A stretch of 64,000 nucleotides of DNA from assembly GCF_002571385.2 (NCBI RefSeq), contig NW_019217912.1, forward strand, positions 505,380 through 569,379. Reading direction: 5' to 3'. The position numbers and the translations under genes are program-made. Within the stretch, counting starts at the first letter, position 1, and each line of letters begins with the position of its first letter. The notes beneath the pieces are model-generated. The model was not told the origin of the DNA and did no database searches. It saw only the letters and a list, made by a program, of their open reading frames with translations. Of this stretch, positions 1 through 43,719 are shown in pieces. Origin of the DNA: Stylophora pistillata (lineage: Eukaryota).

Positions 1-2
1 TA

Positions 3-365
3 GAGGTTCCGCAGGCAGCGCCGCCGCAGGTGAATCCACTGCTTCTGACACCAAGGGTGTTACCAATTGGGCCCATACTTCCCATCGCATCACCTGCACC
101 TTTACCACCACCAGTGGAAGAGACTGAACCCACAGAAGTTCCACAGGCCCCTCCTCGCTTCGCACCCTTGCTTCCACCCATTTTTCCCCTGCCAGGTCCT
201 AGTATCGCACCGAATCCCGCCTTAACTGCCCCAGACAGTTTGCTACCTGAACCAGAAGATGATAAACCATCGGTGCATGTTAATGTGGAAACATCAAGAT
301 CGAGTGTTCCTGAAACGGGTCGCCACTCTAAACAGCACGCAAACAGCCCAGCCAAACGTGGCTAG
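3..365 (+). CDS. 3' end of a Pro-rich protein gene (5' part lies outside the window); probable member of the secreted-protein cluster
   Basis: Frame open from position 3 (EVPQAAPPQV...) to TAG at 365. Pro-rich; ends ...KPSVHVNVETSRSSVP...KRG*, with the RSxVP motif seen in the downstream genes. Donor GAG|GTATGA at 391 and acceptor TTCCCTCTTCAG ending 803 suggest a 3'UTR intron. Confidence 0.75.
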   Translation, partial: EVPQAAPPQVNPLLLTPRVLPIGPILPIASPAPLPPPVEETEPTEVPQAPPRFAPLLPPIFPLPGPSIAPNPALTAPDSLLPEPEDDKPSVHVNVETSRSSVPETGRHSKQHANSPAKRG

Positions 366-12628: not shown

Positions 12629-14991
12629 ATTCTTAGACGATTTTAACATTGACGTCGTGACTAGAACAAAATAAAAACCAGTTGCTTCTTTAAAACTAAT
12701 TATCCTATTTCTATGCACGATTGGTATGTTTTTTCCGTGCCTTTCAATCTATTTTCTTGTGTTACATTGTAAAATTGCGTCCTGAATATCGTAGTCTTGG
12801 TAGGTACTAAACTGAAAGCCGCGAAGTTTATTGAATTTATAGTGTTGCCGAATTGGTTTTCATTGAAAAAACATTTTTGTGCTGTCACTGAAATCCATAG
12901 ACCCCTTTCAGGTCTCAAGGGAATTCCAGCTCTATATTTTGTACATCTGCGTGTGTATAAGGGAAGTTCTTTAGAGTATTATCACATGACCTGAATGGGT
13001 AAACAAATTAATGCAAATTACAGTAAATCACAGTAAATCATTTATTAAATATTATGAGACACTTGTTTTAAATTCCTCCGTCTCGCTTTTTTATCACTTC
13101 TTTCCATGGACGTTTTATCTCTTTAAATCGCCGAATAAAAGGATCAGTTATCGAATTAATTTGGTAACACGTTCAAAACAAATTGTTTAGTACGATTCGA
13201 TTTGCTTTTAGCGACTATTTGCCACAGCACAGAAACCTTAATCTGTAATCTGTCACCTGTCACCTGTCACCTTGGTCAGATTTCGGTATCTTGGTATTAC
13301 ATCGTGTTGTCAAGCAAAATTTTCGCTAAAAATTAAGTGTCGTTTAATTATCATGGAAATATTATATACAATTTTAAGGTGAAACGAAAAGCTTGCGAAA
13401 CTTATAACATTCTATGAAGATTATTATTATTATCTAAAATATGGACTGAGAAAAACACGGTTGTTGGTTGCTTGAAAGATTTATACAGACGAAACAAGCG
13501 ATAGGAAACATAAGAATTGAATTGTAGTTGAATCACCATTCATTCACTCATTATTATTCACATTCGGCATGATGGATCTCGGGAATTGCCAGCGAACGTT
13601 TAGATTTTTTGCTTGTTTGCTTGTTGTCCTTGCATGCAAAATGATGACCTGTTCACTCAGATATAAAGAACTCAATACCTTAACGCAAGTAGAAAAGGTG
13701 AGAATTTGATTCACGAGAACATTCAACGGCTTCCATATTGAATTTATCGATAAATCCAGGTTGTTCACGTTTACATGTACGGAGCAATTCAAGACTGTAC
13801 AATTTAAATACTGATTTGTTCTTATTTTACATCGCGTAATAGTTTTAACATTTGGGTTTGTAATACCAATCCACACTTAATTATTACGGCTTGATCAATT
13901 GTTAATAGATTGTTTCTTTTCATTTTCTTGCAGATCGACTGAAATACGAACGTAAAAGACAAGGTTCATTCAGAAGTCTAAAGCATATCTAGCGCATTTC
14001 TCTCAAGTATAGAGGTTTTGCATGGCAGCCATGTTGCATTGCAGGAACAATGAAAATATTTCAAACCAAGAGACGTCTATACACTAAAATCAACAACTTT
14101 AAGGCAAATGTTAGTTCACAATTTTGTTGGACTTTGAAAAATTTTTGTCGGCCTAATACTCATGGCATGCTCTGTTTAAACCCAAAATTTTCCCACGGAA
14201 AAACTTAGAAAAATACGGGTGCTTATACTACGCATGCGCCATTCTTTTATTTGAACTGCAAGTTACATCTGTTTAAATGTGGTGATTTTTCCCGCCAAAA
14301 GACGTGAAAAAATACGCATGCGCCAATATTTTTTTTTTCATGTTATCGTTTGCTATTAGTAAACAACAAAGTGTTCGATTTTCTCTGTTTATTGTCTTTC
14401 ATTTTTAATAAAGCATTTAATTAATTATTAAGTGATTTTCAATTGAACAATGAAAAGGGTGTCAAGAAAAAATTTTTCGTATATATACTAAGACTTTTGG
14501 CGGGAAAATTTGTACCAGTTTGCACAGAGTTTCCCCTGGCAACATTTTCGGCAAAAATTTTAACAGAGCATCCTTCAAAATTTCCCGCCAAAAAGTATAT
14601 GGACAGCATTTCGTGCAAAAAAGATGAAAGTAAACACCAATTTATCTTCTCCGATAAAAAAAATTACTCGACAAAGTTTTTCCCCTAACCGTTTTTGAAT
14701 TTCAATTGTTTGCACGAGATGATGTGTGGAAGTTCCCAACGAAAAAAAAATCACAGCAAGTTATAGCAAGTCCAATCGGAAGAGTTAAATTTGTAGTCAA
14801 ACTTTTGATTATTTACTACCTCACATTTTGCTTTTAGAATCAATTTCTTTTTAATTCTATAACTTGCCGCGATGTTTTTCCGAAGAAAATGATCTTTGCA
14901 GTAAATGGTTTGAACCCGGGGGTAACATGTGAAGGTGTAGTCTGATCGTCCGGGTGAGTGTAGTCCTGAGAAGGACTGTTGTCGGTGGCAG

Positions 14992-15036
14992 TGACTGACG
15001 TTTCGACAACCTGTGCGGAAGTCATCATCAGAGTCA
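14992..15036 (-). ncRNA. Minimal hammerhead ribozyme, inverted copy
   Basis: Exact reverse complement of 15539-15583. Confidence 0.8.
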
Positions 15037-15538
15037 AGTGAATGATTGTTGTCAGTAGAATGTTCTTATTCCAGTTCGTGTGAAATGATCGGTTGGTTTT
15101 GCCGTGATGTTATTGGCTGTAAGACTCAAGTGACGTAAGTCGTCACAGACGGGCGACGAGGAAAGGTGATGTCAGCAATCACATTGCTGAACACCATCGA
15201 CTTACCAACCACAACATTGACTGGGACTCTGCGCAATGCCTAACCTACAGCACTGACTATTTTCAACGACTGACTCTGGAAAGCTGGTTTACTAACTTAG
15301 AACAGACTCCCCTAAACAGATGTCAACAACTACCCGCCCCATACAAACGACTCATTCACGACATAAACATCACAAACGACCGAAAAAGAACAACCTAGCT
15401 TTACCGACAGACCGAAACAGACCAATCACGAACGACTTACGTCACTTGAGTCTTACAGCCAATAACATCACGGCAAAACCAACCGATCATTTCACACGAA
15501 CTGGAATAAGAACATTCTACTGACAACAATCATTCACT

Positions 15539-15583
15539 TGACTCTGATGATGACTTCCGCACAGGTTGTCGAAACGTCAGTCA
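15539..15583 (+). ncRNA. Minimal type I hammerhead ribozyme in the Penelope pLTR
   Basis: TGACT-CTGATGA-TGAC...GTC-GAAAC-GTC-AGTCA: stem I TGACT/AGTCA, core CUGAUGA and GAAA, GUC cleavage triplet, vestigial stem III. Confidence 0.8.
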
Positions 15584-16954
15584 CTGCCACCGACAACAGT
15601 CCTTCTCAGGACTACGCTCACCCGGACGATCAGACTACACCTTCACAAAACGATCTTTGGAGCCGAAAGTCTTCGAAAGTAACACAGGACAGGTCGATAA
15701 AGCACCGAAAAAAGATCAAAGGTGTTGAACTGAATTGGCAAGCCAATTTGAAAAATAAAATTGCATCATTGGTCGGAGCATACTCTTCATATTTGAATTT
15801 AGCTGCAGTGGTTCACACATTCTACAGTTAGGCTCCGCACATTTTAACGGCTTAATTCGCCCAGCAAAATGAAAAAAATATTGTTTCCGGTTTGGAGCAA
15901 ACTCTTAGAATTTGATTTTAGCCATGAAGGCTTGAACACTTAAACCAAATCAGAAGTAATTTCAGAAAGAAAATTTGTAAAAAACTGTCGATTTTAGCCA
16001 CAAGGGACAGATAGCAATGAGGCTCCACGTGTGTTACAATTGCAATGAATTCTTGCAGCAAATTGTTTGTTTTATTGTGATTAAAGACTGAATTTTTGCC
16101 AAGGTGCTTTCCAGTATTCCTGTGTTACACTGAGAGACTGCCGAGAAGATATTTATTCCACTTAAAATAAAGAGCAAATGAATTATCTACTTTACTATTT
16201 TAAAACCAAATGTCTGGCCTGAACAGCATCAGGTGATTTCTTTTTCGAGCGTGACTAGATTTAAAATGTAATTGGATTACTTGATAGTTCGTCTTGAAGA
16301 AACAACAGTATCTAAACAAGCAAAAAGTCAACCATACTGATAAAACACTTGAAAAGGTTCTAGCTCTTTTAGGCGAGAAAAAGTAAAACCGAGCCTTTGA
16401 TTTTGATACAACTGCTTTGCATTTTTAGTACGTACTTCGCCATGTTAAAATCAACGTGCTTTCTATGCAAATTTCAATCAATTGATATCAAAAAAAGAAA
16501 AAATACACGTACCTTACCAAAATTTCAAATCGCTATAAGGAAATAACAGTACAGTTTCTTCAATTTTCTTGTTCGTCCAATAATACTAAGAGACTATAAT
16601 ACTCCTTTATAACATCTAACATTGACAAGATTTACGAGTAACTTCGTATTTCGTATAGTCGAAACATCTGTTAATATTTAAGACCAAAATTCCTCAACTT
16701 CGTACTTCATTATGCATACAATTGATTAATAAAAAGAATTGCTGAAGCCTTTGGGAGCAATGTTTTGTTTGAAAAAGTGTGGTAACAGAAGCCTTCCCCT
16801 AACGTTTGCCATCGTTTTATGGGTCGCTTAATACTCAAAAGATTGGCCTTATTCGCGTAATTTTCGTGTTAACTATTTTTTTCAAATAGAAGTGAAGTAA
16901 TTTTTTATAGAATGTATTCTACTCGAAATGTCACAACCCTTATTTTTTTGGAGA

Positions 16955-23709: not shown

Positions 23710-24479
23710 GCTGTTTTCCAATGATAAAACCCAGGCACATTTGGAAGGAAGCTTGTTGTTAGTTATAGAAGGGAAATTAACTATCATGCCAACCTTTTCG
23801 CTGGCGGGTGCCCAACAAATTTTCCACCATAACCCAACATTGTTACTTTAGTGTATTCAGTAAAAACTGATGCTTTGAGGGTCAGCTCATCTGTAGGATC
23901 CGAGACCAAGTAGAGGACAATTGCACACACGGTCCCATGTTTGGACGTATATCTAGCGATAACGAAAAAAAAAAAAAGTCATTCAACTTGATATTTTAAA
24001 CGAGAACTTTAATGGGCACGAAAAAATTTTAAAAGACACAACTTGTACCATCTTCAGTTTAGCGAAAATTAACATATAATAAACCGTATGACCAAAAAAA
24101 AGCTAACATTTTTATAAAACCCAAGTTGGCACACATCAAGCCGACAAAAAAAAAAAGACTTCAAACGGTTGTCTTCGAAACTCTAAGTGTGCTTCTAAAA
24201 AGAACACGGAAGTATTAGAGCGTAAGACCAGAAGCGTACTCGAACATTACAACTGACGAGTGTTTCTTTATTTCTCAGCGGCGTCGCTCACCTTTAGTTT
24301 AAGCCTACCAAACATCCATGTCAACTGTGTTCTTCTGAGCTCTCCAAGTTTGCTGCTTTAAAAAGCTTCCCCATTTACAGACAGCCAATTCTCCCATCTG
24401 AAGCAATCTCTCCTCAATAGCCGGTATATTGCGATTGTCTGCCGTTGGGCCAACATTCAACAACATGTTCACTCCACAG
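23710..24479 (-). pseudogene. FUCA: Alpha-L-fucosidase (GH29) pseudogene, last two exons (24479-24309 and 23952-~23710)
   Basis: SCGVNMLLNVGPTAD...IEERLLQMGE(WLSVNGEA)...WRAQKNTVDMDVW|GT, then AG|YTSKHGTVCAIVL...VTMLGYGG...GMIVNFPSITNNKLPSKCAWVLSLEN. Matches the FUCA1/2 C-terminus; frameshifts and stops present, intron retained. Confidence 0.85.
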
Positions 24480-26060
24480 CTGAAGCGAAAGGATGAGAGA
24501 AGATTAACATCCTGATTAGAGTCAACATGTTGCAAATTTTAAGGGAGCGATTTCCTACTATGACCAGAAAAAAGAACTTAGTTGTTGAGTATCCATCTAT
24601 GTCCACACTTAGGGAAAATCACAAAACTTTGCCTTTCCTGAATCAAACGATAAATTACCGACGGTTAAACTACACGATATGTTTCATTACGATCACTATT
24701 GTCAGTATCCTCCTGTTCACCCCAAAAAAAGCCGCCCTAAGTGTCCTGCTGTTATAAAGCACTAAAAATCCTAAAGGATGAGTTCTTGCTGTCAATAATT
24801 ATTTGACTTTGAGATTCAGCGGAAGAAATTTAGTGTTCTCAGAGCAAAATATAAAATTTATAGGGTTGGTACCTGTTACTCAGTCTCTGACAGATGCTAA
24901 TATCTTTTGTTTTGCATTTATCGCGCCTCAACTTTACTTTTACCATCATAATGAATCCAATTAAAAAGCAATTTTTGGACAATTTGTTTTATGACTTTGT
25001 CCTGCCGATTTGTGAAGAAGCATGTCAGTATGTTGGTGTACCCGTAATCCCATGAAGTTAACTTAATCGTCTTTTGAAAATAAGAAAAAGGTTTGCTTTG
25101 AAAACAAATCAGATTACCTGCTTCTTTTCTCTTCATAAGATTGTCACTACAAAGCGTTTTCTATCCTCATTGTCGATTAGTGTTGTGATTCTAGGTTCGT
25201 TTTTCTAGCTTTTTTCGTTGAAATAATAAAAGCTACCTGAGGTTACCTGTAAACACTGTAAGAAAACTTCGCTTCAGTAGTCACGACTACTGCAGGAAGA
25301 ATCGTCAAAACATGAAAATTGGTTGTTTAGTCTGCAATTGTTTGGACGTAATGAGCCGTGTGAAGAATCTACTGATGTTTTGAAAGCGACTTTGTCTGGC
25401 TAAAGTTGTGCAAACAGTAGCATCTCACGCCAAATTTCTTCCTTTTATTTTTTTTACCAATGTATTTAAACGAACCTAGAAGGAAAGGTTTAAGGTGACC
25501 TTCAGATAATTTCGGGTTCATTGCAGGAAAGCTGCTGCCTTAAAACCTGTCACTATAACTTTGGTTAAATTATACTACGCATAAAACAAGGAAAATATGT
25601 CCAAGACGATAAAATCAGGAAAGGAAAGTATCGGTCCATATATTCAGTGTACTGGATGCCAAAAATAAAAAAGATTTAACACTGTAATTACATGGTAGTC
25701 ACAATGATTAAAACTACGCGTGAAAAATTTATTGAACTTTTATTTGTTCACTGATTAGCGTGACCACCATCCTTCCAGTTAGAAGAAGACTTTCGTAAGT
25801 ATACCTGCTGTTTGAGAAACAAACGCTGGTGGTTCTATTCAATTATGTGACACTGTCATAAACTCCTATTCTTCCGTGAAAAACTAATTGCCACGTGCGA
25901 TGAGATGATAAAAGATTAAATCATGGCAAGAATTCCCTCGGAGTGAAGTAATCTCCGTTTGACCACTAAGACCATCGACAGATCACTTGTGTTTTGGTTT
26001 ATTGTTCTTAAACAGAATCTAGAGGGGCCGTATTTGTTTACAAGTTTACTTTTCCCCGAC

Positions 26061-28067
26061 ATGGTGGCCTCTCGGGGATTATGGCTTTGTCTACTAGGGA
26101 TGTTATTATTTAGTTTTTCCTCTGGCGTGTTTTCAAGAGGAGTTAAAAGTAAACGAAGCCCACGCAAGAATTCCGTTCGTTACACTGTCCACGAAAAACC
26201 GCCAGAGCTGGTTGTAAATGCTGACCCCGAAGGAGTAAAAGTTCAAGCTAAGCCTTCAAAACTTCAAGTAATTGCTTACCCTCACCTACAGGGATTTCAT
26301 CCATACGAGCATACGGCAGTATTAGGTCCACATAGTCCACCAGTGAATATTGGACCAAATGCACCTCCGGTTCACATTGGACCTCATGTACCAGCTGTTC
26401 ATCTTAGTCCCAGGGTTCCAAGTCTTCACTACGGAACAAACGCTCCTCTTCTTCACGTCAGGCCTCATGTGCCTTTTGTTCATATGACGCCCCCAGTCCA
26501 CGGCATAAACGCTCTTACCGGTCCTCCAGTGCACGTTATGTCACCATCTACAGTATATCATCAACCACCGATTGTTTTTCATCAGCCACACTTTCAATAT
26601 CCTGGATACGGTGGTTTTGGTGGATTTCCAGGCTATGGAGGCTTTGGGTATGGTGGCTATGGTTGCTATGGTGGTGGACCTGGTTTCTATGGGCGCTCCA
26701 CTATACCTGAAAATGATGAAGAGGACGACGACGATGATAATAATGTTGATAACAATAACGATGGCAACGACTCTAAGAACGACGAGGGCGAAGCTCATGA
26801 ACATCGCAAGCACAAGGGAAAATCGAAGCGCGAAGTTGTTTCACAGAAAGTCAAGCGCCAGTGGTTTGGGTGGCATCCGTTCCCACATACAGTTAATGTA
26901 GGACCTCACACTCCACCCATTCACGTTGGACCTCATTATCCCCCGGTTCATATCGGGCCTCACGTCCCTGCAGTTCATATAGGACCTCATGTTCCAGTCA
27001 TAAACGTCCCATCCCATGTCCCAGCGATTCATGTACGTCCCCATGTTCCTGCTGTGCATTTAGGACCGCCTGTTCCTATCATTAATGCCGGAAACCACTT
27101 CCCAGCGGTGCATGTCACTTCTCCACCCACGATCTACCACCGTCCTCCTATTGTCATTCACCAACCTCATATCGTCCATCCTTATGGCGGATGGAAGAAA
27201 CGCTCAAAGATCGCCCAAGCTGTTAAATCTAAAAAGGAGAGTTCTACGAAGGAAGTTAAAGCAGAGGAGCAAAGCAGTGGTGATGAAGACCCAAAACAGG
27301 AAGAAGAAAAGCCACAGGAAACCCCCGCCTCCGAGCAATTCAGTGGTGAACCAGAACAAAGTAGTGGACAACCACCACATGCAGACGAGGAAAAGCAAGT
27401 CAACGTAAAATCTACCCATGAAAGAACAAGGCGACAGATGTTTTCTAATGCCAACTCCGGACCAAATGGCGACTCAGTGATATTTGTCCATCCAAATGAA
27501 CACAATGCGGCAAGTCCTGCAGGATTGGGTGACCTGGCAGGTGGCCATGGTAACCCTTTGGAAGGCGGTAACCCAGCAGAAGGGTTTGGGGATCTTTCCT
27601 CGAAGGCCTTCGGAGATGGATTTAACCCTAGTTCGTTAGCAGAGGGTGGACAAGGAGGAGAGTTGGGCGCTGGTGGTGATAGCCTTGCTGGACTCGCAGG
27701 AGCAAGCCTCGGTGGAGCAGCAGGCCTGGCTGGAAACGAAGCTCCCCCTATGGGGGCCAATAGCTTCTCTGACGCTGGAGGGCTGGGAGGTCTCGGCGGA
27801 CAAGGAGGTCTTGGTGGACAGGGAGGTCTTGGAGGACAGGGTGCTCCAGAAGAGCTTCCTGGTGGTCTTGCAGGTCTAGGTGGGGCCATGGGATCGCCAA
27901 TGGGTGGGGGTCTTGGCGGAGAAGAAGCTAGGTCGGCGGTTCCTCGCTCTAGTATCCCTGGAAGACTAAGAAAGATAACCAGAGGGTACCTCACACGAAA
28001 CCCTCTTGACAATGGAGCAAATGCTCCCATTGTCAAGAAAACGTACATTCCACGACCAGGACAATAA
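26061..28067 (+). CDS. Secreted 668-aa modular His/Pro/Gly-rich precursor (single coding exon)
   Basis: Long ORF. MVASRGLWLCLLGMLLFSFSSG is signal-peptide-like. Two 9-mer His/Pro repeat blocks, YGG/FGG and GGLGGQ tracts, acidic spacers and dibasic sites. Acceptor ending 26015 upstream; donor at 28090 downstream. Confidence 0.9.
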   Translation: MVASRGLWLCLLGMLLFSFSSGVFSRGVKSKRSPRKNSVRYTVHEKPPELVVNADPEGVKVQAKPSKLQVIAYPHLQGFHPYEHTAVLGPHSPPVNIGPNAPPVHIGPHVPAVHLSPRVPSLHYGTNAPLLHVRPHVPFVHMTPPVHGINALTGPPVHVMSPSTVYHQPPIVFHQPHFQYPGYGGFGGFPGYGGFGYGGYGCYGGGPGFYGRSTIPENDEEDDDDDNNVDNNNDGNDSKNDEGEAHEHRKHKGKSKREVVSQKVKRQWFGWHPFPHTVNVGPHTPPIHVGPHYPPVHIGPHVPAVHIGPHVPVINVPSHVPAIHVRPHVPAVHLGPPVPIINAGNHFPAVHVTSPPTIYHRPPIVIHQPHIVHPYGGWKKRSKIAQAVKSKKESSTKEVKAEEQSSGDEDPKQEEEKPQETPASEQFSGEPEQSSGQPPHADEEKQVNVKSTHERTRRQMFSNANSGPNGDSVIFVHPNEHNAASPAGLGDLAGGHGNPLEGGNPAEGFGDLSSKAFGDGFNPSSLAEGGQGGELGAGGDSLAGLAGASLGGAAGLAGNEAPPMGANSFSDAGGLGGLGGQGGLGGQGGLGGQGAPEELPGGLAGLGGAMGSPMGGGLGGEEARSAVPRSSIPGRLRKITRGYLTRNPLDNGANAPIVKKTYIPRPGQ

Positions 28068-31000
28068 CAATTCGACGCTGAATAAACAGGTAAGTGAAAG
28101 ATGTTAGCTTCAAGCAGAGCTATTCCTTGCCTATCTGTTAAAAAAGATAACAGGTCCTGGTTGCGGTTGTTGAATTTAAAAAGCTACGATTAATTTTTAC
28201 TTCTACTGTGGTTTTATTCAGCTTCCATTTCGAGTACCATCTTATGTGAATGGGTGATAAAACATTCTTATGTATCCTACTATTTTCTGCGTGATTTTTT
28301 ACTACATTCTTATCTGAAACATTTCCTTAATAATACTGCTGATGTTAGAGAAAACGATCTGAAGTAAGACTGAAACAATTGCTCTCAACAGTTGAAGAGT
28401 AACACAGCTTTTTTTTTTAAAAAAAAAAAAACCGCGCAACCGAATCCTGAAGACTAAACCAGACCATTAATGCGTGCTTTAGGACCTGTTGCACAAATTA
28501 CCGCCTATGAACTTCGATGGCAGCCTTTTCCTCTTTAAGTTAAACATTTATCAAGAAGGCGAGAATCGCTCTTTTTATGACTTTTAACAGGACTTCTCAA
28601 AGAAAATTGTTAAACCCTTTCTTAGAATTCCTCGAACGCTGTGTTGTACACGCAAACATTTGAAAATAATTTGATTAAAGGAAATAAAGAGTGGTCAGGA
28701 GGATGCAGATTTTTTGGGAGGCGGGGTAGATCTCGTCGATATGAATATGTTCTGTAAAGTGAAGCGACGAAATCACTTCACTTCAAACAAACTTGGGTAC
28801 TTTGAGTACCTTAATTATTCATCAAAAGAATTGTTCGCAATACAAAAGAAACGATGGCACTACCAAGTGAGTTGGTGCTCGATAGTACAATAGTTTCAGT
28901 TTGTTGTGCATTTATTTTTTGTTCAACTTTAACTCGCCAGCCCCATTCAGCAACGTTCTTTAATCTTTTTGTACGCTATAACGGGATTTGAATTATTTAA
29001 TCAGTTTGTAAGACCTCGTTAATTTTCGGTAGAGAACAGTCTTTGAGGATAGACCTTTTTGGAGATCTACTTTTACTGCTTCTCGATTGTAGCTTTAAAT
29101 TAGTGACCAATAACTTCATTTTGTTTGTATTTACAGAAATTGCACCATGGAAGTGCAAGCACCAGTGACCATATTTAAAGATGCTCTACGATCAAAGGAA
29201 TGATTTTATGCGATTCCAAAAGACTAAAAAAGGAATTTCCTTTCAATCCCAGCGGAATTGACTGCTGACAACTTGAATGCGAAAAGCGTCCTCGTTTGAT
29301 ATGTTCCGTATGTAGGTAGCAGGCCGTGTTGTGTCCATGAGTATGGGCAGACTACATTAGTTGGTTACTTTTCCAATGATCTCTATCCTCAAACGAAGTT
29401 ATTCATTTTGTTTTAAGCGATTGTGAAAATAAAATTGAAGATTTGTTGAGATAATTGCTTCCATTATGTGGATTACATCTGCCTGACTTGCAGACTCGTA
29501 TTCACACTTCGAGTTCCAAAAGTGATTGACTCTTACAATGTGGTTAAAACTCAATATCAAGATGACTATACGTGTATATAAAAGAAAAAGGAATTTTATG
29601 CAAAGAGGCAAAATTGCTATGAAACAAAATAAAATTCATGGAACTAAAATACATGGAAATGGAAAGTGTTCATGGGGAATTGGCAGTCAGATCCCGGGTA
29701 TTAGCGAGATGGTAATGAGAAGATCTGCCTTTTTTCTTGACTTGAGAAAAATAAAAAAAATGTATAAATAAAGGAATTGAATCATAGAAAGAGTTTTGAT
29801 TCTAATGTTAATTAATGATGGGATAACTTGGTTTCAACTGAGTTGATATTGTGGATCGGCCACATTTCGACAAAATGTTCGAACGTATCCCTTCTTTAAG
29901 ACGAACTTTGAAAATTAAACCCCTAATTGATGATAAGCCTGCCTTGAATTAGTCTTTCACTTTTGCTCACTTAAATTACACTGAGTGCCTGCACACTGGT
30001 CCCGTCAATTAATTTCTTTCAAATTTTTAGCAAAGTAGTTGGGTTTATTATGGACAAAGGGATAACAAATCAATTCTGTAGGACTACACTTGTCTGGGGC
30101 GTCGTTTACGTTTTTCACTTTACTTTGGTTACGTTCTCCTTCAGGTTGTTACATTTATGACCACTTTGAAAACTGTTTCACAACACTTGTCTGTAAAGAG
30201 TTCAGTTTCCCCTGGTTTTATGGGTGGTGTTCATCCTATACAACGGATATCCGGGCTTACGGCCGCTATCAACTGGGCGAATTTGAAAAAGGGAGGGCTG
30301 GATGTCGCAATACACCCTGAATGTATAATTGTTTTTTAACTATCTTTATCCCTTTTTGGTTGACAGTCTATCATTAATATTGGTTGTTAGTTGCTATTGT
30401 TTATTTTGTTTATTTTTGTTTTTTATGAAACGAAGACCTCGGGATAAAAGTACATTTCAATTATAATTTGGCTTATCTTCATTTAATTGTCAGTTTTTTC
30501 CCCGTACATCATGTTTGTTTACTTTGTCTTTCTCACCAGTTGGATTGTTTCGATATAGAATTCGTTGTTTGCTTTTCCACCGGTTATCTACCAAGTTAAA
30601 CACTAAGGCATTTTGTAGCATGACAGGGAAAATACTGTACAAGTAGCCAAAACAAGCAACTTAGAGCATGTTTCTATTTGAGGGGCTGCTAGTTGCATGG
30701 CACAGGAAACAAACGATAACCTACTCGAGATTGCGAAAGGCAACTTCATAAGGACATTTGCAAAGTAATCACCGAAGTTTCAAGGTAGTATGTCTCTTTG
30801 AGCTGAAGCCGTGCTAGATGTTCACTATTTTTTTCCATTTGTGTTTCTAGACCGAGTTAGAAGTTCAATTAACTTCTATTTTCATTGCATCTCATCAGCT
30901 CAGCAATCCAAGGTCTTCAATAAATCCACAATCGCAAGTTGATTTGTATAGTGTGGATGCCTCGCCCTCTTTCCGCTCCCGGTCAATTTTAAACTTTTCT

Positions 31001-31455: not shown

Positions 31456-34103
31456 ATGAAATGGTTTTGTTCTGCCGACGGGTTTCGTGCAACGTTATGT
31501 CTTATTTGTTTGTTGGCTTTTAATGGGAGCGTTAAACCAAAACCATTACCTGAAGGTGGAGGAACAGTGACTCAAACTGGTGAGCCGTCACATTTTCAAG
31601 TTGATGACAAAGCCGCTGAAATTGAAGTCAATGCCAACCCTGCTGGAGTAAAAGTCAACGCTAAGCCAGCCTCTCTTCAAGTTGTAGCAAAGCCGGGTGT
31701 CCCAGCTGTACCAATATTTCATCCAGCGATACATCTTGCCCAACACTATGCGCCTCCACCAGTTATTCATCACAGTGCGGCCATGTTTTATCATGACGGA
31801 TTTCACTATCCCTTCGGTCACGACTGGTTTTACAATGGAATAAAACGACATAAGTTTCCTAGACCACGGAAAGATCAAATACAAGTTCGAACGCACAAGT
31901 CTGATATTCCTCGGTCAAAACATCACAAGAAGGCCTCTCAATCTCACAAGAGACAATTTATCTCTGCGGTTCCGCAGTTTGCGCAACCATCATCCCTCGC
32001 TGCCTTTAGAGGTCTCGGTGCGCTCGGAACTTACGGATATGGAGCCTCACCTCAGTACGGTTCTCTTGTCGGTGCACCACTGGGAGTTTACGGCTTACGT
32101 CAAAATCCTCAAACAGGATTACTTTCCTCATCTCCCCAACTCACTCCTCAGCAAGGTCTACAAGAGTCGGGGATGTCAAGAGGTCTTTTGCCCTCGGAAA
32201 GTACTTCAACAGGCACAGATACAACTGACATACTGCGGAGATATCAGAGGCTTTACGGTGAACTTAATGCCCTTGCTAACATGTACAACTCGCTTGTAAG
32301 GCAAAGAAGTTTGCATTCCCTAACAGACATGGGATATGCTGGGGGAATGGGCGTTGGAGGCGCTCTCCGCATGAATACGGATGGTAGTGACCCTCGGCTC
32401 GGACAATTAGGTTTGGGAGCTCCGCGAGGCCCAGTGATGGGTTACACAAGAACTTACATCCCCTCCCCACTGGTGAAGCTTTATGGCACTCAGGCGTCAC
32501 TTCCCCAGACCAATAGCTTTCTTGGTGTACCTGGTATGTTTGCTAAAAATAGCCGTTACTGAATTACTGTTGCTTCTTGAAGCATTATATTTTGTTTTTG
32601 GATGATGAAGAATGATTTTAATATTTTGTTTTTGGATGATAAAGAATAATTTTGATATATCTAAGTCAATATTTGCAATTAAAAAATTGTCTAAAGGTTA
32701 TAAAGAGAGTTTTTGTAGGCTGAAGATTACTTTTGACTCACTGTTTCTTTTCCCAAATTTTTCCCTGTACTTGAATGCATTTATCTTATTCTTATCACAG
32801 TGGCATTAAACAAATGTGGAATGTTTTTTCGGATAGTCATAGTATATTTTCAGCCCTTTTGGTGTCATTTGCTGTTTGTGTGTGTGTGTGTGTGTGTGTG
32901 TTATTGTTGTTGTTTGTTTCCGTTGTTTCTATTTTTATGTTGGTTTTAACTAATCATTATGATCGGCGAAACCGTAAAAATTGCGTGAATAACATATTTC
33001 TCCTTTACTTTTCTGCAGGGGCGTCGTTAGTTGGGCAACCACCCATGGCCCGATATCTCGACCTTTCTTCTCTGCTGCAGGGCTCACCTGCAATGGTGAG
33101 CAGATCCAAGGTCCCTGCAGCCCCAGATAAAAAAGACAAGAAACATGATCATCAGGATGACACAATGAAAAAAGCAAAAGTGAAACGACAAGCGCTAGTT
33201 GAACCGATTTTAACCACCGAGGATCCCGACAGCATGGACGATTTATTCCAAGGTGACTATGACCAGGACTACAAGCGGCAGATGATATTAACGCCTGCCC
33301 TGGAGACGCTACAGCAACTTCAGCCACTGCAACCATTATATACTCGACAGGCCATACAGCCACAATCGTTACAGCTACGTCAACTACAGCTTCAGCCACA
33401 GATACTACCTGAGCAACCGTTAACCCGTCAGTCGCTTGCTTTGCAGGGCACCGGTATGCAACCAACGGGTATGCAGCAGCAGATTGGAATACCAGGGACT
33501 CAGCAGCTTGGTCTCCTTCCCTTGACCTCCACACCACTGCGCTACATGACGCCATCTTTGGTGACACCACTTGAATCAATGGGTTCCAGCTTTGATGGAA
33601 GATCATCAGCAGCTGGAGCAGCTTTACCGCAATCGTTCGCCTCTCAGAGTTTAGTGTCACCGTTAATTTCGGGTACGTTCACCCGTCCTAGAAGTGATTA
33701 CGGCTCTTTGCAAGATCTTTCATCCAGTAGTCTCTTTCAAGACAGGTCACAATTTCGCCGTCCCTTGAGACTTGGTTTCCCAGGCAATCCAAGACGTCTC
33801 TTCCACAGACCTCAATACCGAAGGCGATTACATAACTTTAGAGAGGAAGAAAACTTGGATGGAATGCAACCAGAAGTGTTAGGTCGTGAGAGAATCTCGC
33901 AAGAGGGATCATATTCCACTGAAGTAGTCCCAAGTTCTCAAGGAGAGACACTCATAAACTCGCCAGTGGGGTTCGGACCAATCACGGTGGAGGCTAAGAC
34001 AGCAGAAGGGGCACGGAGAGCTGCGATGGCTGGAGAAGATAAGAGACATCGCATCCACAGACCAGTTGAAAGAACGTCTAAGGGCAAGAGGAACCATCAG
34101 TAA
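31456..34103 (+). CDS. Secreted 720-aa low-complexity precursor, paralogue of 26061-28067 (join 31456-32533,33019-34103)
   Basis: Signal-peptide-like MKWFCSADGFRATLCLICLLAFNGSV. Donor CTG|GTATGT and acceptor TTTTCTGCAG| are both phase 1 and join the two ORFs in frame. 17/26 identity to the upstream gene in EIEVNANPAGVKVNAKPASLQVVAKP. Confidence 0.88.
32877..32900 (+). repeat. (TG)n microsatellite in the intron
   Basis: About 12 TG units. Confidence 0.9.
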
Positions 34104-35808: not shown

Positions 35809-36409
35809 CAGGTTCTTATGCTACTTTTACTCTTCTAATGTTTAAACCAATCGCCCGAAAATCTCACCAGATATCTAAGGCACAAGAAGATATAAAGTTA
35901 ACATCTGGCACTATAAAACCGAGCAGCGAGAATCTCCGACAGAGAGTAAGTCCGCTACAATACTTTTGGATCTTTTCTAGGTTATTGCTTAGGGAAACGA
36001 ATAATCCCTTTACCTACAACGACTGAAGTTCATTTTTGATAAACGTTCGTAAGATATCAAACACGGAGGAGAATTTATTTGTGTCGCACGTCTTCTATAG
36101 GCAACGTTCTCTTAAGACTATTATTGTATGTGCGTGCAAATGATTTTGCGCACCTGGAATAAGCATATTGTTTACACAAGTGTTTCGAGAAGAGTGTTTG
36201 ATAAACAAAGGTAGAGCACCGCGAGGTGTTTCGTTAAAACTAATAAGAATCAAGATGGAAAACGAGTTTAAAAAAAAAGTGTGAACATTTTGCAATCATC
36301 TTACCCTCCTTGATTAACAGTTTGCTTATTACCTTCTTTTGCCGCTTTATTGCATCGAAGAGTGATGTTCAAAATAAAATTAATTGACAGGTTATTAGAG
36401 GAAGCCAAC

Positions 36410-37879
36410 ATGCCACGAGGACACTCAGTGGGAGATGCTCACTCCAACAACAGAGCGCGGAGTTTACGATCGGCCTGTTCTAGAGCCTCTAGTACAATAA
36501 AGCAAGTAGATTCTACCCTTGCCCTTGTGCGGTCAGACGAAAGGGTCCTCGAGGAAGATGAAACGCAGTCCTTCACTAGCTCTCACTGGGATACAGACCT
36601 CGAGGACGATGATTTCTCTGATAGCGAAGGAGATGAAGTTACTCCCGATAAGGAAACATACCTGAACTTGTGTGACTCGTTGGGAGTCATTCCCGTGACT
36701 CGATTTGGGAACGAGATCGGCCACGAGGAGATCAAGATTAACCATCGCTTTTTGAGGGAAATGGGGACAAAGGCCATTGCCTCCGTCCTGTTAGGTAACA
36801 AAACAACCTCCAAGCTACACATTGCGTCTAACGAGCTCAATATCAAAGGAGGAATTTATATGGGACAACTTCTGTCAAAGAACAGAGCTCTTACTGAGCT
36901 GAACTTGGCCGACAACAACATCAGGCGAGAAGCTATTGCCGCCATAGCAGAAGCTTTGCCGAGTAACACGGTTATTAGAAAGTTAGATTTGTCTGGAAAC
37001 GGTCTTGGGGACAAAGACGCTGAATTATTGGCCGAGGGAATTGAAAACAATAGGTCTCTTCATTGTTTGAAGCTTAGCTACAACAAGTTTTCTGAAGAGT
37101 CTGGTGTTTCTCTTGGAACTGCACTTACATATAACAATTCGCTTCTCGAGCTTAACTTAAGCTGGAATCATATTCGAAGAAGAGGAGCTGAGGCTATTTC
37201 GAAGAGTCTGAGGTATAACAACTCGCTGGAAAAGCTTGATCTCTCTTGGAATGGATTTGATGACAATGGAACTGCGGAACTTGGGGAGTCCTTAAAACGA
37301 AACTCGGCGCTCAGAGAACTCAACCTAAGCCACAATCGAATCTCGGACGAGGGAATAAAAAACATTGCGAAAGGTCTTGAGGGGAGTGAGAGCCTGGAAG
37401 TGCTAATACTCAATCATAATTTGATCTTCAATGCTTGTCAGGGAATTAATAAGCTGTTGGAAATGCTGTATAAGAATGGCGCCCCTGCGCTGAAAATCCT
37501 GGCGATTTTAGACGTAAAGCTCGATCATGATTGTGAAACTCTGCTAGCAAAAGTTTTAGAAAATCGATCAGGGCTGACTGTACATCATGGATGTAAAAAG
37601 TCCGACTGTTTCGTATCCAAAAAGAGAGAGACTAATCCATTTGACTTCCTGAAAATATATTTGGACAAAAACAAGATTCACGCGTCTGATTTGTTTAAAC
37701 GCTTGGATCCCGACTGCCAATTTCGCGATAGCTTGTCTCGAGTGGAGTTCGTCGATGGAATGAAGCGTTTGAAGGTAATGAGTGACTTCTACCTTGATAA
37801 ACTTGTGGAACTTCTTGACGAGGATGGAGATGGCGAGATCGATTACAGCGAATTTGTCAAGATGCCTCAGTCTATGTAA
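36410..37879 (+). CDS. LRRC74: LRRC74-like protein, 489 aa: RI-type 28-aa LRRs plus C-terminal EF-hand pair; intronless CDS
   Basis: WDTDLE and YLNLCDSLGVIP N-terminal motifs, ~9 LxxLxLSxN repeats at 28-aa spacing, canonical EF loop DEDGDGEIDYSE. Confidence 0.85.
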   Translation: MPRGHSVGDAHSNNRARSLRSACSRASSTIKQVDSTLALVRSDERVLEEDETQSFTSSHWDTDLEDDDFSDSEGDEVTPDKETYLNLCDSLGVIPVTRFGNEIGHEEIKINHRFLREMGTKAIASVLLGNKTTSKLHIASNELNIKGGIYMGQLLSKNRALTELNLADNNIRREAIAAIAEALPSNTVIRKLDLSGNGLGDKDAELLAEGIENNRSLHCLKLSYNKFSEESGVSLGTALTYNNSLLELNLSWNHIRRRGAEAISKSLRYNNSLEKLDLSWNGFDDNGTAELGESLKRNSALRELNLSHNRISDEGIKNIAKGLEGSESLEVLILNHNLIFNACQGINKLLEMLYKNGAPALKILAILDVKLDHDCETLLAKVLENRSGLTVHHGCKKSDCFVSKKRETNPFDFLKIYLDKNKIHASDLFKRLDPDCQFRDSLSRVEFVDGMKRLKVMSDFYLDKLVELLDEDGDGEIDYSEFVKMPQSM

Positions 37880-38946: not shown

Positions 38947-41900
38947 TCAGACTACTTTTCCATTCATGGCATCTTGAACACTAAAAGATGTTTTTTCCTC
39001 GTCAGTGTTTTTCGAAGCTATGTGTTTTTTTCTTCGCTCCATAAGGAGCTGAACAAACTGGCTAGGAATAGTAATAATTCCGTCATTGTTTCGTAGGTCC
39101 ACCCACAATAGATTGGGAAAGTAATTTGGATCTTTTAACAAAGTGAAAAACTTTAACACAGCCTTCATATCAATTTGATTGCCACGTAAACCTGCGAAGA
39201 AGTAGAAATCAGAAGCAATCAAGAGGGACTTAAAGATTCCATGATGACCACTTCATTTTCTAAAATTGAAACGGTGAGCAGTTGAATGTTAGTATCATTA
39301 TGGAGAAAAAACACAATATTATTATAGCTATCGTCAATAGACAATTTCCGAATTACTTTTGGCCTCTTTTTGAAAACGAGGCCTGGTACTCAACCATTCT
39401 TCTGAAAATGAGTTTAATTTGTATGTGAATGAAAACTTATAATCATATGAAAGGATGAGCACCAGGACTCGTTTTGAAAATGAGGCCAATGGTAATTCGG
39501 AAATGGGCTATTTAGCACGGGTTTCCAAGGAAACCAGTATGGTAGCATGGCTGGCAGAAACATTTACCTATTAGAGATATTGCAATTCAAAGAAAAGTTT
39601 TTGGAAAAAATGAGAACAAACAACACATTCAACCCACAAGTGAGGTCAGACCGGAATTTGATTTCAGGTCAAATTGATGAAAGGCGACCATCTTCTCCAT
39701 TGTGTCTCCATGCACCCGAGTAAACTCTTTTAAATATTTTTTTGATAAGGAAAGAGCTCGATTACCTTTTCTCATAAAAAGTACGATGAAGCTTTCTAAT
39801 CTCAGTTTGGTTGTAATAAGTCTCTTTATAGAATGTCAATTTTTCTAAATATTCAAATATCGCAGAACGGGATTTCTGGGGGTAAGGAATAAGGGGGAAG
39901 GGCACTGTTATGCGATGACCCTTGCATATTTAGTCAGTTATCAACTCGGCAAATTTCAACAGTCTGAGCCGAAAAGGAACTAAAAAAAATTAAAACTGCG
40001 ATTAGTATCGTCTCAGACTCCAGTCCCATTTTCGGTCAATAATCTTCGTCAAAGTTTAGGCCCCTGTATAGTTTTGGTTTTGATTCGATTGTATTTGAGT
40101 GTTTCATGTTTACTATTGTCTATGTTTCCCAGGAAATTCGTTCACCTACCGATGAAATAGAGAGATTTCAGTGTCATAGTCACGTCGATCAGCTTAAAAG
40201 CATTAACATTGTCTAGCGAGCAGAATACCAGCTCTATCTTCTTAATCTTAGGACATCTGCACAAAAGTTCCGTGAGCTTCTTCATGTTTTTCCTCTTTGA
40301 CAAGTCCAAGCCATATATGCTGATGACGGACAAGTCTGATTTCGATAATGTTTCTTTGTTGGCCTTTTCAAGGTCATCCATGACGTCACTTGTTGGGTCA
40401 AAGTCAAAATGTTTGAGGAGCAGTTTGCATAACTGGCCGATTTGGCGCTCATTTCTATAGCGAAGTGCCTCCTGAAGTCTAAAAAAAAAATTTGGAAGCA
40501 AGAATTGTGTTAAAAAATTCACTTTAATAGAGTTCAACGTATATTTTTTAGGGTCAACAAGATGATAAAAAGAGATTGATGTCAAATTTACGCGTGTTAA
40601 TACTTCTTTTAGTGTTTCATCAGTACAGTGAAAAAAGGCCTAAAATTCTGCAAGTGTCTCTTTTGCGTAAAACTAAAGAAAATGAGGATGGAAAAGAATT
40701 GACGTGAAAAGGGTGAAGGAAACTCGCCCATAATTAAATAGTAAACTCTAAGACAGCAATTCGTTGTTTTCGATGGAGAATTTCACTCAACCCCTCCGTC
40801 TCGGGAAAATTCAGGACTCGCGGGAAAATAAGAGTGTTTCCCTCGGGACCATACATTAAGTGTACAAAGTTAATTGGTGAAAGTTTGTAGTTTTGGTGCA
40901 GATTGAACACCTTGTTAAATGGGAATGCGCAGACCTTACATAGTAAATGGTTTGAACGGGGGTGGGGGGGACATGTGATACTATAGTCTGATCGTTTGGA
41001 TGGGTGTAGTCCTGAGAAGGACAGTTGTCGGTAGTGGTGGCTGACGTTTCGACCACCTGAGCGACAACCCTATCACACAGTAGACCTTATGCAGGTGGCG
41101 CTGTTTTTCATGTTTGTTTCTCCATTTTTCGAGAGTAAAATGAAGCTCGTCCAGAATGCTCCTTTCAAAAATAAAAACTTGCACACACCAGATTCAGTGA
41201 AGTCGTAAGGTCAAAAACGTTTGTAATGTTATGAACGAAGTTACCGTACATTTGGTGATGGGTGATAACGATATTTTTAATGGTCTTAACGTGCACATGC
41301 AAGCACAGCAGAACTTGGACAGAAACCTATCGAGGGGATTTCAAAAGAGAATCACACCTTTTAAGCTTATGAAATTTTGTAACTGTAGACTTACCTTTGT
41401 AAGTACCGATGTGCGTCTCGATCAACAAGGAATTCATTAGCACTCAGGAGATCCGAGACGGCCAGATTACAGAGCCTTTTAGTCTTTGAACTTACCCCGA
41501 TATTTTTTGAAATCTAGAAGCAGGTGAAAAAGTTCTCTTTGACAAAAAAGCGCTTAACATTCGAATAATTAAGCAAAAAGGTCACAGATTATGAGATTTT
41601 ATCTCCCATAGAACCCTTTTGCTTGACTATAGACCACTTTCATAAATGGCTGCCGGATTAATATTTTTTTGTTTAAATTTAAATTAGCCCTACTGGCCTC
41701 GTTCTCCATTACAAAACTCAAAAGAATACATTATTCTCAAGCGAGGCCAGAAGGGCTAAAATTTAAATTTAAACAAAAGAATATTTATACGGCAGGCATT
41801 TATGAAAGTGGTCTATCGTAAAACTAAAACCAAATTACTCACAACCGCCAATGGAAATCTAGGAATGCATCATTAGCAGCCAATCAGAACTCAAGGCAAG

Positions 41901-42652
41901 AACAGGTTAACTGCCCGAGGTGCGAGAAAATGCAAGCGACCAAGTTGCAGTTAGTTTTACTTTTGAAACTGATTGCCAGTTGAGAAAGTGTCGCGATATT
42001 CCAAATAGATTGTAAGATCTAATCTATTAGCTTGATTCTCTAATGAACAATGACGGTAGCGAGCAGATTGTAATCTGCTGGCTACTGTTTAAAAAACGTC
42101 GAGAAATTTCCTAACGAATTAATTTTGGCCGTCTGCAACGGTCACGGATATCATCTTACGAAGATATCACCTCTTTGCTACGTTTTTATTTAGACATTTA
42201 ACATCAAAAACAAAATATGTTGTTTTTACCATTGCACTAACGAATGCCGATCAGCATTTGATCAGCGTAATCATGTTTTCAAAGCGCACTGTTGTTCATA
42301 TAAACTATTAAAGGAATGATTTTATTGCATTGCAGTGTCTGATTCATTTGTTCGCAAAGTTGGCGAAAGAATTAAATGCGGGTTGATATGATAAAAAGTA
42401 ACCGTTTAACAGGTCAAACCTGAATATTTTAACTTTCTTTTGCGCGACAGCTTCTATAGCAGTATGCGGTTACTGTTTATTCGCGATGAACAAATCTAAG
42501 CTTACCTCTTTAAATACATTTATCGCTTGTCCAAATATTCCTTTTTGAGAGAGCCGAGCAATTTGTCTTACGTAGAGAGCGCGCAGCTGGTAAGGCTGGA
42601 GTTTATCATGAGCTGAGTTCGATGAGCAGCAAAACATTGTGGAAATTTTCAT
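38947..42652 (-). CDS. LRRC75: LRRC75 (FAM211)-like protein, 279 aa (exons 42652-42506, 41513-41395, 40478-40150, 39191-38947)
   Basis: All introns GT-AG with compatible phases (0,2,1). QPYQLRALYVRQIARLSQKG and LKDPNYFPNLLWVDLRNNDGIITIPSQFVQLLMER resemble the LRRC75A motifs as I recall them (PPYHRRV...; LKDPSKFPNVTWIDLGNN). Confidence 0.88.
39336..39512. mobile_element. Palindromic MITE (intronic)
   Basis: AATAGACAATTTCCGAATTAC...GTAATTCGGAAATGGGCTATT inverted ends; inner GGCCTC/GAGGCC arms. Confidence 0.75.
40940..41063 (-). mobile_element. Diverged Penelope pLTR fragment, same family as 14899-15647
   Basis: GTAAATGGTTTGAAC...GTAGTCCTGAGAAGGAC...CTGACGTTTCGAC; truncated before the CUGANGA core. 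Confidence 0.8.
41629..41816. mobile_element. Palindromic MITE (intronic)
   Basis: ATAGACCACTTTCATAAATG / CATTTATGAAAGTGGTCTAT with ~70-bp arms. Confidence 0.8.
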
Positions 42653-43719
42653 ATCTGATATTCCATTTCTACTGAAAATCGTTTTTCTAGAGCAGCGCAA
42701 GGCGAACTTTCGTCACAATGTTCAAATATGCGCGCGTGGACTTGGCAAGGTTTAAGCGCGCGCAAAGGTATTGGTGAGTTATCTTGATATATGATAAGCC
42801 GAAGGCCTGTCAGAGTCCAGCAAGACCCTGAAAATAATCGCAAATATTTCGATTGGAAAACAAGCTGACATGCAAGTATCGATTAGTAGAATAACATGTT
42901 GGTGTCGTCCATTTTTTTTTTGGGGGGGGGGGGGTTTAATGCACGCTATTTCAATATAGCAGGTGCGAGTTGAAGAGAAGGCCAGCGCGCGCGGTGCATA
43001 GTTCAAAACTCTCTTAGCATTAAATACCGGAACCGACCTGAATGAAGTTATTGCTTTTAATGTTTACACAAAGCAAAGTATCGAATACCGAAGCCGACTT
43101 GAATGGTACCAAAACATGTCGCTCATGGAAAACTTATGCACATTTAAGAGCAACGGTGAATTGGTGTCTTCGAGAATTCTCGATTGCAGAAGAGGGGCCA
43201 TTTCAGGCTCGAGTTAACTGATTCACATGGTACATACCATACCACCAAAAGTTGATGTGTATCAGATTCGAAAGCCGCGGAGTTTGTCGGACAAATTTTG
43301 AGGTTTTCCGCAAAGTTCTAATAACTAAAGTTCTCGATAAGCAATTAAGAATAAAAACCATCGATATTAAAGAATGACGTTTCGACGGCTCGATGCCATC
43401 ATTCTCAAATTCAAATAAATACATTTGTAAGTTCTTTATATAGAAAAAGTACGTGTGAAGGTCTCCGCAAAGTTCAATTTTAATTCCGCCTCTCCCTATG
43501 CATGAAAAGGACTATTATGAGCTGATGCGAGTTATCAGAGTTCTTTCCAGTCCTGCTCTAACTCATCTGTTTGAAAAACAGTGGCATGGAATGGTTTCAT
43601 TGGATGATCTGAAATTTCCGGGAGAGTTTCTGAACTTTGTGCAGATTTTGTGCATGTTGCAGAGTTCAGATCTGGCTGGGGGAAAGTTGGAAACGAATGG
43701 CAAACTTTAAGACTTGGCT

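Follow-up and report, generated by a model that had tools for sequence, protein, structure and literature searches.

The analyzed window, 64,000 nucleotides of Stylophora pistillata DNA (G000:C129:505380-569379, + strand), contains a gene, here termed gene A, whose single open reading frame (ORF) at 26061-28067 encodes 668 amino acids (aa) and holds, in frame, two blocks of a His/Pro/Val repeat. Gene A is transcribed from the + strand: stranded reads in all four RNA runs place a single GT-AG intron after the stop codon, such that the entire coding sequence resides in exon 1 and exon 2 contributes only 3′ untranslated region (UTR) (Table 1). The runs containing gene A are labeled coral and represent bulk RNA, and no splice joint altering the blocks was seen in these four. 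Within one study (runs X14, X21, and X22), one run contains gene A and the two runs from another sample are almost devoid of gene A words, a contrast that may reflect tissue- or stage-limited expression. Upstream of gene A, at 23872-24734, the − strand yields a weakly expressed, spliced transcript with an intron at ~23953-24291.

The two blocks (94 and 95 aa) lie exactly where a preliminary description of this DNA had placed them, and they align with each other as it had proposed: 58 of 95 residues are identical, and the alignment score of 339 far exceeds those of 1000 shuffles (mean, 41; maximum, 103). Their repeat unit is a nonamer with the consensus GPHVPAVHI, and autocorrelation of the protein sequence peaks at a lag of 9 (z = 6.3 in block 1 and 9.4 in block 2), with further signal at a lag of 18 (z = 4.7 and 7.5). 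The period of nine thus stands, although the count of about ten nonamers per block does not: the register stays clean over about 7 (block 1) or 8 (block 2) units, and the final ~20 residues of each block form another unit, a heptad (YH[QR]PPIVxHQPH), that is also the repeat unit of a neighboring giant gene. Over the first seven units of each block, His occupies nonamer position 3 in 9/14 units and position 8 in 10/14, with Asn instead of His at position 8 in 4/14; overall, the blocks are 24% Pro, 17% His, and 8% Gly. As the preliminary description had also noted, this period is held in the protein while the DNA has diverged: the blocks agree at 167 of 282 nucleotides, codons are shared at only 16 of the 58 identical residues, and 28 of 39 fourfold sites differ (i.e., silent sites are saturated), with Tandem Repeats Finder detecting in the region only one 2-copy, 27-bp repeat. 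A genome-wide search (398 Mb) detected no third block: of 25 candidates scored, two matched. The repeat module is real and strongly selected, and it is apparently undescribed.

Read from its N terminus, the gene A protein comprises a hydrophobic segment and a KSKR site; a 34-aa module (the N-module), block 1, a Gly/Tyr tract, an RSTIP motif, and an acidic spacer; KSKR and KVKR sites ahead of a Gln-started peptide (peptide 2) that carries block 2; a KKR site, a charged spacer, and an RTRR site; and a third peptide with a Gln start and a Gly-rich tail. Several of these sites resemble the furin consensus, and an N-terminal Gln can form pyroglutamate. Peptide 2 (~112-113 aa) has 19 His, 26 Pro, 9 Gly, 2 Arg, and no acidic residue. 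Across seven orthologues, block 2 is conserved at 84-95 of 95 positions and the N-module at 29-33 of 34 (17 of 34 in a Nematostella isoform without part of that module), whereas spacer 1 is conserved at 8-15 of 54 positions and spacer 2 at 7-18 of 77. Dibasic or R-x-K/R-R sites bound the conserved modules and the spacers between them vary, as expected of a precursor with discarded spacers. Of the 16 two-block proteins listed, 15 have a KR or RR pair just ahead of block 2 (in L031, it lies farther upstream), and both Arg residues of block 2 precede Pro in all 16 sequences listed; outside that listing, L030 has one additional, cleavable Arg in block 2. From this arrangement, the gene A protein is likely a precursor cut at dibasic sites into His/Pro/Val peptides, and a block 2 that lacks trypsin sites would account for its absence from shotgun proteomes.

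Two side observations touch on this architecture. In Nematostella isoform X2 (P0008), block 1 and a portion of the N-module are missing, which suggests splicing within the large coding exon. Additionally, a motif, (F/Y/G)[KR]Sx[IV](P/E), closes cassettes in distant orthologues and in many genes of the surrounding cluster (described below; e.g., window 26694-26708) and possibly serves as a sorting signal or as another protease site not yet described.

TABLE 1 Coordinates of gene A, its predicted parts, and adjoining frames in the window
Feature	Position	Strand	Basis and remarks
Gene A coding sequence (668 aa, predicted secreted multi-cassette precursor)	26061..28067	+	ORF, RNA, orthologues
Gene A exon 1 (entire coding sequence inside; 5′ end approximate)	25966..28089	+	Stranded RNA reads, RNA contigs
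Gene A intron (GT-AG, in 3′ UTR)	28090..29136	+	Joint in 4/4 RNA runs
Gene A exon 2 (only 3′ UTR)	29137..29759	+	RNA reads
Signal-peptide-like hydrophobic N terminus (approximate)	26061..26135	+	Hydrophobicity heuristic; orthologue N termini also hydrophobic
KSKR, predicted furin-type site behind signal region	26145..26156	+	Sequence
N-module (conserved, 34 aa; common to gene B and upstream giant gene; end is counterpart of Chironex peptide)	26181..26282	+	Sequence comparison
Block 1 (His/Pro/Val nonamers, then terminal heptad; missing from Nematostella isoform X2)	26310..26591	+	Sequence, alignment
Gly/Tyr/Phe tract at end of cassette 1 (far longer and Gly/His-rich in second group)	26592..26693	+	Sequence comparison
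RSxIP motif, then acidic/basic spacer 1 including KSKR and KVKR (8-15/54 conserved)	26694..26858	+	Orthologue alignment
Predicted mature peptide 2 (112 aa, Gln start, 19 His, no Asp/Glu)	26859..27194	+	Sequence
Block 2 (near-invariant His/Pro/Val nonamers; Pro after both Arg)	26886..27170	+	Sequence, alignment
KKR site, charged spacer 2 (7-18/77 conserved), RTRR site	27195..27434	+	Orthologue alignment
Predicted peptide 3 (conserved Gln-started head GDSVIFVHP, Gly-rich tail)	27435..27929	+	Orthologue alignment
Gene B, gene A paralogue (720 aa; coding exons 31456-32533 and 33019-34103; same N-module)	31456..34103	+	RNA, sequence
Giant upstream reading frame, 3′ end (full extent G000:C129:486659-505744, L008-L009)	1..365	+	Sequence

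Named homologues of gene A occur in Actinostola, Nematostella (LOC5512467), and the scyphozoan Rhopilema. Block 2 is identical at 92-95 of 95 positions in corals and anemones and at 83-84 of 95 in a second, more divergent group. The His positions, on whose conservation in orthologues the preliminary description had staked its proposal of a metal-binding or pH-switching role, are kept: 17/17 are present in all seven anthozoan-type orthologues and 16/17 in both second-group proteins. A metagenome scan yielded 21 loci, of which five have a block 2 identical at 95/95 positions with synonymous divergence (dS) of 0.55-0.89, two have 93 and 91/95 (dS 2.4-2.8), 13 have 83-84/95 (dS 1.7 to saturation), and one is incomplete. 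The ratio of nonsynonymous to synonymous divergence (dN/dS) lies well under 1 in 20/21 full-block loci (dN 0.005-0.096, dS 0.55 to saturation), bearing out the selection at the protein level that had been read from the two blocks alone.

A tree of block 1 (20 rows) separates the anthozoan-type group from the second group (support, 100/99) and joins L031 with Rhopilema (98/95) on a long branch, the two also sharing a post-block motif. As Rhopilema is its single named member, we infer that the second group is medusozoan; the Rhopilema record contains only block-1-type sequence, which is 52/95 identical to block 2. A tree of both blocks (one partial row excluded) suggests that the block was duplicated before the two groups split (91/91, a node that is not starred).

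Protein searches, including one of 1.84e9 representatives, found no homologue outside Cnidaria. The latter returned 42 matches, 10 of which have family motifs; the other 32, of low identity and without any such motif, were rejected, and the six inspected are simple tandem repeats. On these searches, the family is confined to Cnidaria, with both anthozoans and medusozoans represented, most members being unnamed records. A search restricted to proteins of 824-2350 aa added no further members, Pfam returned no match over the curated cut-offs for the 3 + 18 + 6 proteins submitted (extensin and chitin-binding families included), PDB sequence searches gave nothing under E 0.14, and the best Atlas scores (0.80 and 0.79) all fall below 0.9 and serve as leads only. 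Neither LOC5512467 nor any of six family motifs is mentioned in the full texts searched. As such, the family apparently is new relative to what is known, in that it has no Pfam model and its motifs are absent from those texts, although the Hydra gene nb035, considered next, was not itself searched across the literature, and later work on it is possible.

The link to the stinging capsule comes from a peptide, LQVIEYPQASPR, listed in the OFFGEL table of Chironex nematocyst proteins (1 unique peptide, 4 spectra, probability 0.966), which derives from a fragment of 103 aa for which the annotation gives similarity to Hydra nb035-sv3 (ACM79865.1; E 2.8e-4) (PMC4445812). Its counterpart is the end of the N-module: LQVIEYP behind Lys closes this module in all second-group proteins having it, and eight residues are identical in L031; the N-module ends of gene B and of the giant gene differ from LQVIEYP. 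According to its description in PMC2687796, nb035 expression is confined to nematocytes in differentiation, whatever their type, and the gene has two exons, with a 2,347-bp ORF in exon 1 and an exon 2 that is mainly 3′ UTR; one splice form changes an “extensin-related” domain, and the gene is presented as putatively Hydra-restricted and uncharacterized. Gene A has the same layout, a large ORF wholly in exon 1 followed by an exon 2 of 3′ UTR, and a similar size (2,004 bp here and ~2,500-2,600 bp in the second group). The Pro-rich, splice-altered region of nb035 may be paralleled by the 24% Pro of the blocks and by the loss of block 1 in isoform X2, although the four coral runs contain no such joint and the Pfam extensin families remain unmatched. 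The available description of nb035 differs from gene A in naming no function, processing, or His repeat (PMC2687796). Nonetheless, nb035 is the closest known entity to the gene A family, and orthology with it, or at least a role in cnidocytes, is quite probable from the third-party annotation and the gene layout.

The stinging capsule is the defining trait of Cnidaria. With a probability of roughly 0.6, we interpret the gene A family as pan-cnidarian structural precursors of this capsule (probably orthologues of nb035) that would be cut at dibasic sites into His/Pro/Val peptides, which would assemble when His loses its charge or binds metal. The signal peptide would bring the precursor into the post-Golgi capsule vesicle, where the charged spacers would hold the protonated blocks in solution; furin-type convertases would then take out the spacers to leave Gln-started peptides; and upon deprotonation of His or binding of Zn or Cu, the V/I-x-V/I hydrophobic segments would pack in exact register. 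The product would be an insoluble part of the thread, i.e., spines, barbs, shaft, or tubule lining. The computed charge of peptide 2 drops from +17 at pH 5.5 to +2 at pH 8.1, and in this respect, given its 19 His and no acidic residue, the analogy that the preliminary description drew with His-rich secreted materials fits. It is unusual for a 95-residue low-complexity repeat to persist at 88-100% identity, which implies exact assembly, and its near-total invariance favors register-specific self-assembly or co-assembly over a loose coacervate. The nematocyst capsule matrix contains poly-glutamate, and Zn and Cu have been reported in anemone capsules. Parallels to the proposed steps exist in spinalin, whose precursors reside in the matrix before spines form (PMC5363355), and in the His switch of the squid histidine-rich beak proteins (HBPs) (PMC9999432).

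Several observations weigh against this interpretation. Cleavage, fold, metal binding, and the location in coral are predictions. The AlphaFold model of peptide 2, built on a near-invariant 12-row alignment, has a predicted local distance difference test score (pLDDT) of 39.6, a predicted template modeling score of 0.12, and no secondary structure, and that of the giant-gene cassette (16 of 18 cassettes) is likewise of low confidence (pLDDT 48.1). A regular beta-roll, one of two folds previously suggested for the blocks, is accordingly unsupported, and Pro at two or three of every nine positions disfavors a classical one. The other, a polyproline II (PPII) ladder, is possible: as PPII, a nonamer would make three turns, giving a G/V/V face and a pair of distinct His stripes rather than a single ladder, and the neighboring heptad is incompatible with PPII periodicity. 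The proposed orthology with nb035 comes from a weak third-party annotation plus layout. The Chironex peptide derives from the N-module and not from a His block; its authors place it among unreported single-peptide matches, and their dithiothreitol extract also contained ribosomal and other proteins, the reagent having released structural proteins among others (PMC4445812). No search returned a family protein from Hydra, but because the same searches also lacked 7/7 other full-length orthologues that were looked up exactly, this gap says little. The literature searched does not report in which cell types the gene is expressed, either in coral or in Nematostella. The supplements of PMC12945647, PMC12549020, and PMC13003132 gave no match for the Nematostella gene and, for Hydractinia and Nematostella, none for the family in capsules, although a control term also came back empty and the sequences are perhaps absent there. 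The best Atlas look-alikes, all below 0.9, are arthropod cuticle-type proteins. Finally, among anthozoan orthologues, His is conserved no better than Pro; conservation spans nearly all residues rather than His selectively and so is not, by itself, proof of metal binding.

This last point bears on the best-surviving alternative, namely, that in the same capsule precursor the His residues do not act as a pH or metal switch but pack and form hydrogen bonds within a rigid scaffold or template. Such a scaffold would suit the invariance of Pro, Val, and Gly, which equals that of His, and the presence of Asn for His at position 8 in 4/14 nonamers. We consider it improbable given that His is almost the sole titratable group of peptide 2, accounting for the charge drop noted above with only 2 Arg and no acidic residue beside it, and given that at depth His is kept above average, at 15/17 in the Rhopilema block versus 52/95 residues overall.

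Somewhat less probable again is a protein that the epidermis secretes into a chitin-associated matrix (cuticle, periderm, or adhesive), akin to squid-beak HBPs or insect cuticle proteins. The Atlas leads are arthropod cuticle-like clusters (0.77-0.80); many soft cnidarians possess chitin and chitin synthase (PMC10216261); and in Hydractinia, a tandem array of genes for secreted Gly-rich proteins is associated with the stolon cells that produce chitin (PMC11876637). Yet scores of this size are only leads, the Hydractinia rows examined (part 1 of 391) are short Arg/Tyr-rich proteins of another build, no Pfam domain was matched, chitin-binding domains included, and the sole located peptide of the family comes from nematocysts (PMC4445812). 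On the same alignment rows, the Hydractinia shematrin-like genes were rejected as homologues (PMC11876637).

It is very unlikely that the gene encodes a precursor of bioactive peptides, whether antimicrobial, neuropeptide-like, or venom. The precursor grammar (signal peptide, acidic spacer, KR, and Gln, in their usual sense in cnidarians) fits this possibility, and the Chironex peptide was present in a venom extract (PMC4445812), but the predicted products are 112-171 aa long, low-complexity, and almost Cys-free; the neighboring genes encode structural-type Gly/Tyr/Cys repeats; and toxins and antimicrobial peptides do not usually stay this invariant throughout a phylum. A role in coral biomineralization, as a protein of the skeletal organic matrix, might be suggested by a secreted-type coral repeat protein with Asp-rich stretches but is largely excluded by distribution: anemones conserve the family just as well, and a jellyfish has it. 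In addition, the acidic stretches are the unconserved spacers.

Gene A shares its predicted plan of signal peptide, charged propart, KR, and mature peptide with the precursors of minicollagens and cnidarian toxins, in which an acidic propart ends in KR (described in part in PMC2687796). It differs in having several cassettes per chain, no Gly-X-Y repeat, and no cysteine-rich domain (2 Cys in 668 aa, with no Pfam match). Like the predicted gene A product, spinalin (nb054) of Hydra spines (PMC2687796, PMC9205923, PMC5363355) is secreted, His-rich, and low-complexity, and the second-group orthologues carry long Gly/His/Tyr tracts; unlike the blocks, which are Pro/Val/His with 8% Gly in a single coding exon, spinalin is Gly/His-based and encoded by a many-exon locus. 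Its Gly/His-dominated mature region has no equivalent in peptide 2 (9 Gly, 26 Pro, and 19 His), whereas the flanking tracts of the second group (Gly 35-58%, His 6-16%) tend toward the composition of spinalin. The “spinalin-like” thread and barb component v1g243188 of Nematostella is also a low-complexity nematocyte structural protein, and a reviewer calls it long and Cys-rich, features that several cluster neighbors here share; by primers and description, it is not gene A (PMC9205923). In Nereis Nvjp-1, Glycera MTP, and the squid HBPs, His is nearly the sole titratable residue among hydrophobic repeats (PMC9999432), a likeness to hard tissues that makes a pH switch or metal cross-links plausible, and we hypothesize that the gene A family works like such His-rich structural proteins. 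These proteins are nonetheless built on Gly/His repeats (GGH, GHGLY, GHGXY), with 27-40% His in the jaw proteins (PMC9999432), motifs that the nonamer consensus of gene A does not match, gene A having a Pro/Val nonamer, 17% His, a near-invariant multi-cassette precursor, and no detectable homology to them.

No spinalin orthologue is known in anthozoans (PMC9205923, PMC5363355), and gene A is a single-copy, near-invariant candidate for the material of their spines and barbs. Its Nematostella orthologue, LOC5512467, is open to knock-down. If the capsule interpretation is true, a gene described as putatively Hydra-specific (nb035) would extend to the entire phylum. The Pro/Val/His design is also unlike the Gly/His designs of bio-inspired materials. 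The precursor architecture, cnidarian range, and nematocyst link were all absent from the preliminary description, as was the gene cluster to which gene A belongs.

Gene A forms the end of a ~135-kb cluster of similar secreted-type, low-complexity precursors. Its paralogue, gene B, also adjoins it in L026, L028, and a fused Actinostola gene model; RNA coverage of gene B is ~tenfold below that of gene A in two runs, and loose reads hint at a further 5′ exon. Copies of the N-module exist in gene B and, 17 kb upstream of the window, in the giant frame, which consists of 4313 codons, one TAG in a spacer, and then 2047 codons (~6,200 codons together); this TAG may be a real stop, a polymorphism, or an assembly error. 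His-[RQ]-Pro-Pro-hydrophobic heptads make up 18 cassettes of the giant frame; a KK, RK, or KR pair begins every cassette, and (F/Y)GKSxV/I ends most of them. The heptad aligns to the block ends (hhalign probability 94% over 27 columns, both sequences being low-complexity). After these cassettes come many Gln-started ones ending in a recurring V.V.V(E/Q)T.(K/R)S. Of the four weak matches that the heptad cassette gave on other contigs, the best is a short Pro-rich tandem repeat and was rejected.

Farther upstream, to ~C129:407 kb, at least 15 more ORFs or exons have cassettes after KR sites, as judged by sequence, and many begin with signal-like starts. Those at ~C129:407000-484000 (L006, L007, L011-L016) contain Gly/Tyr/Trp, Gly/Cys, poly-Cys, Cys/His, and Gly/Ala (fibroin-like) cassettes and resemble clusters of keratin-associated or chorion proteins. 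The [KR]Sx[IV] motif, which was picked after the sequences had been seen, is observed versus expected 6 versus 0.2, 4 versus 0.1, and 19 versus 6.6 times in cluster ORFs and 4 versus 0.4 times in gene A, and is missing from two Cys/His ORFs. An orthologue of v1g243188 was sought in the cluster by a short start motif, and the sole match looks like chance. A broader and distinctly tentative proposal is that this locus corresponds, in cnidarians, to the epidermal differentiation complex of vertebrates, as a tandem set of polyprotein genes, and that a shared two-site cleavage code, opened by KR/KK and closed by RSxI, would release His-, Gly/Tyr-, and Cys-rich thread peptides; the nonamer and heptad peptides would then represent a new class of pH- or metal-set polymers, nearly unchanged since the cnidarian ancestor, that may be the missing anthozoan spine material, overlooked for want of a trypsin site in the block.

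On its upstream flank (G000:C129:383520-389629, L022-L023), the cluster is bordered by exons of what we take to be an M28/PSMA-like glutamate carboxypeptidase. Just past its other end, window positions 36314-37879 (+) hold a 521-codon, intronless-looking ORF with, by eye, leucine-rich repeats (LRRs) and an EF-hand-like C-terminal end, followed at 40142-46021 (−) by exons that look ZU5/UPA-like and LRR-like, possibly of a PIDD-like gene. Also by eye, four further segments of the window (53014-53574, 59254-59913, 62779-63246, and 14751-15831) comprise an OTU-protease-like ORF and retroelement fragments (reverse transcriptase, endonuclease, and GIY-YIG-like).

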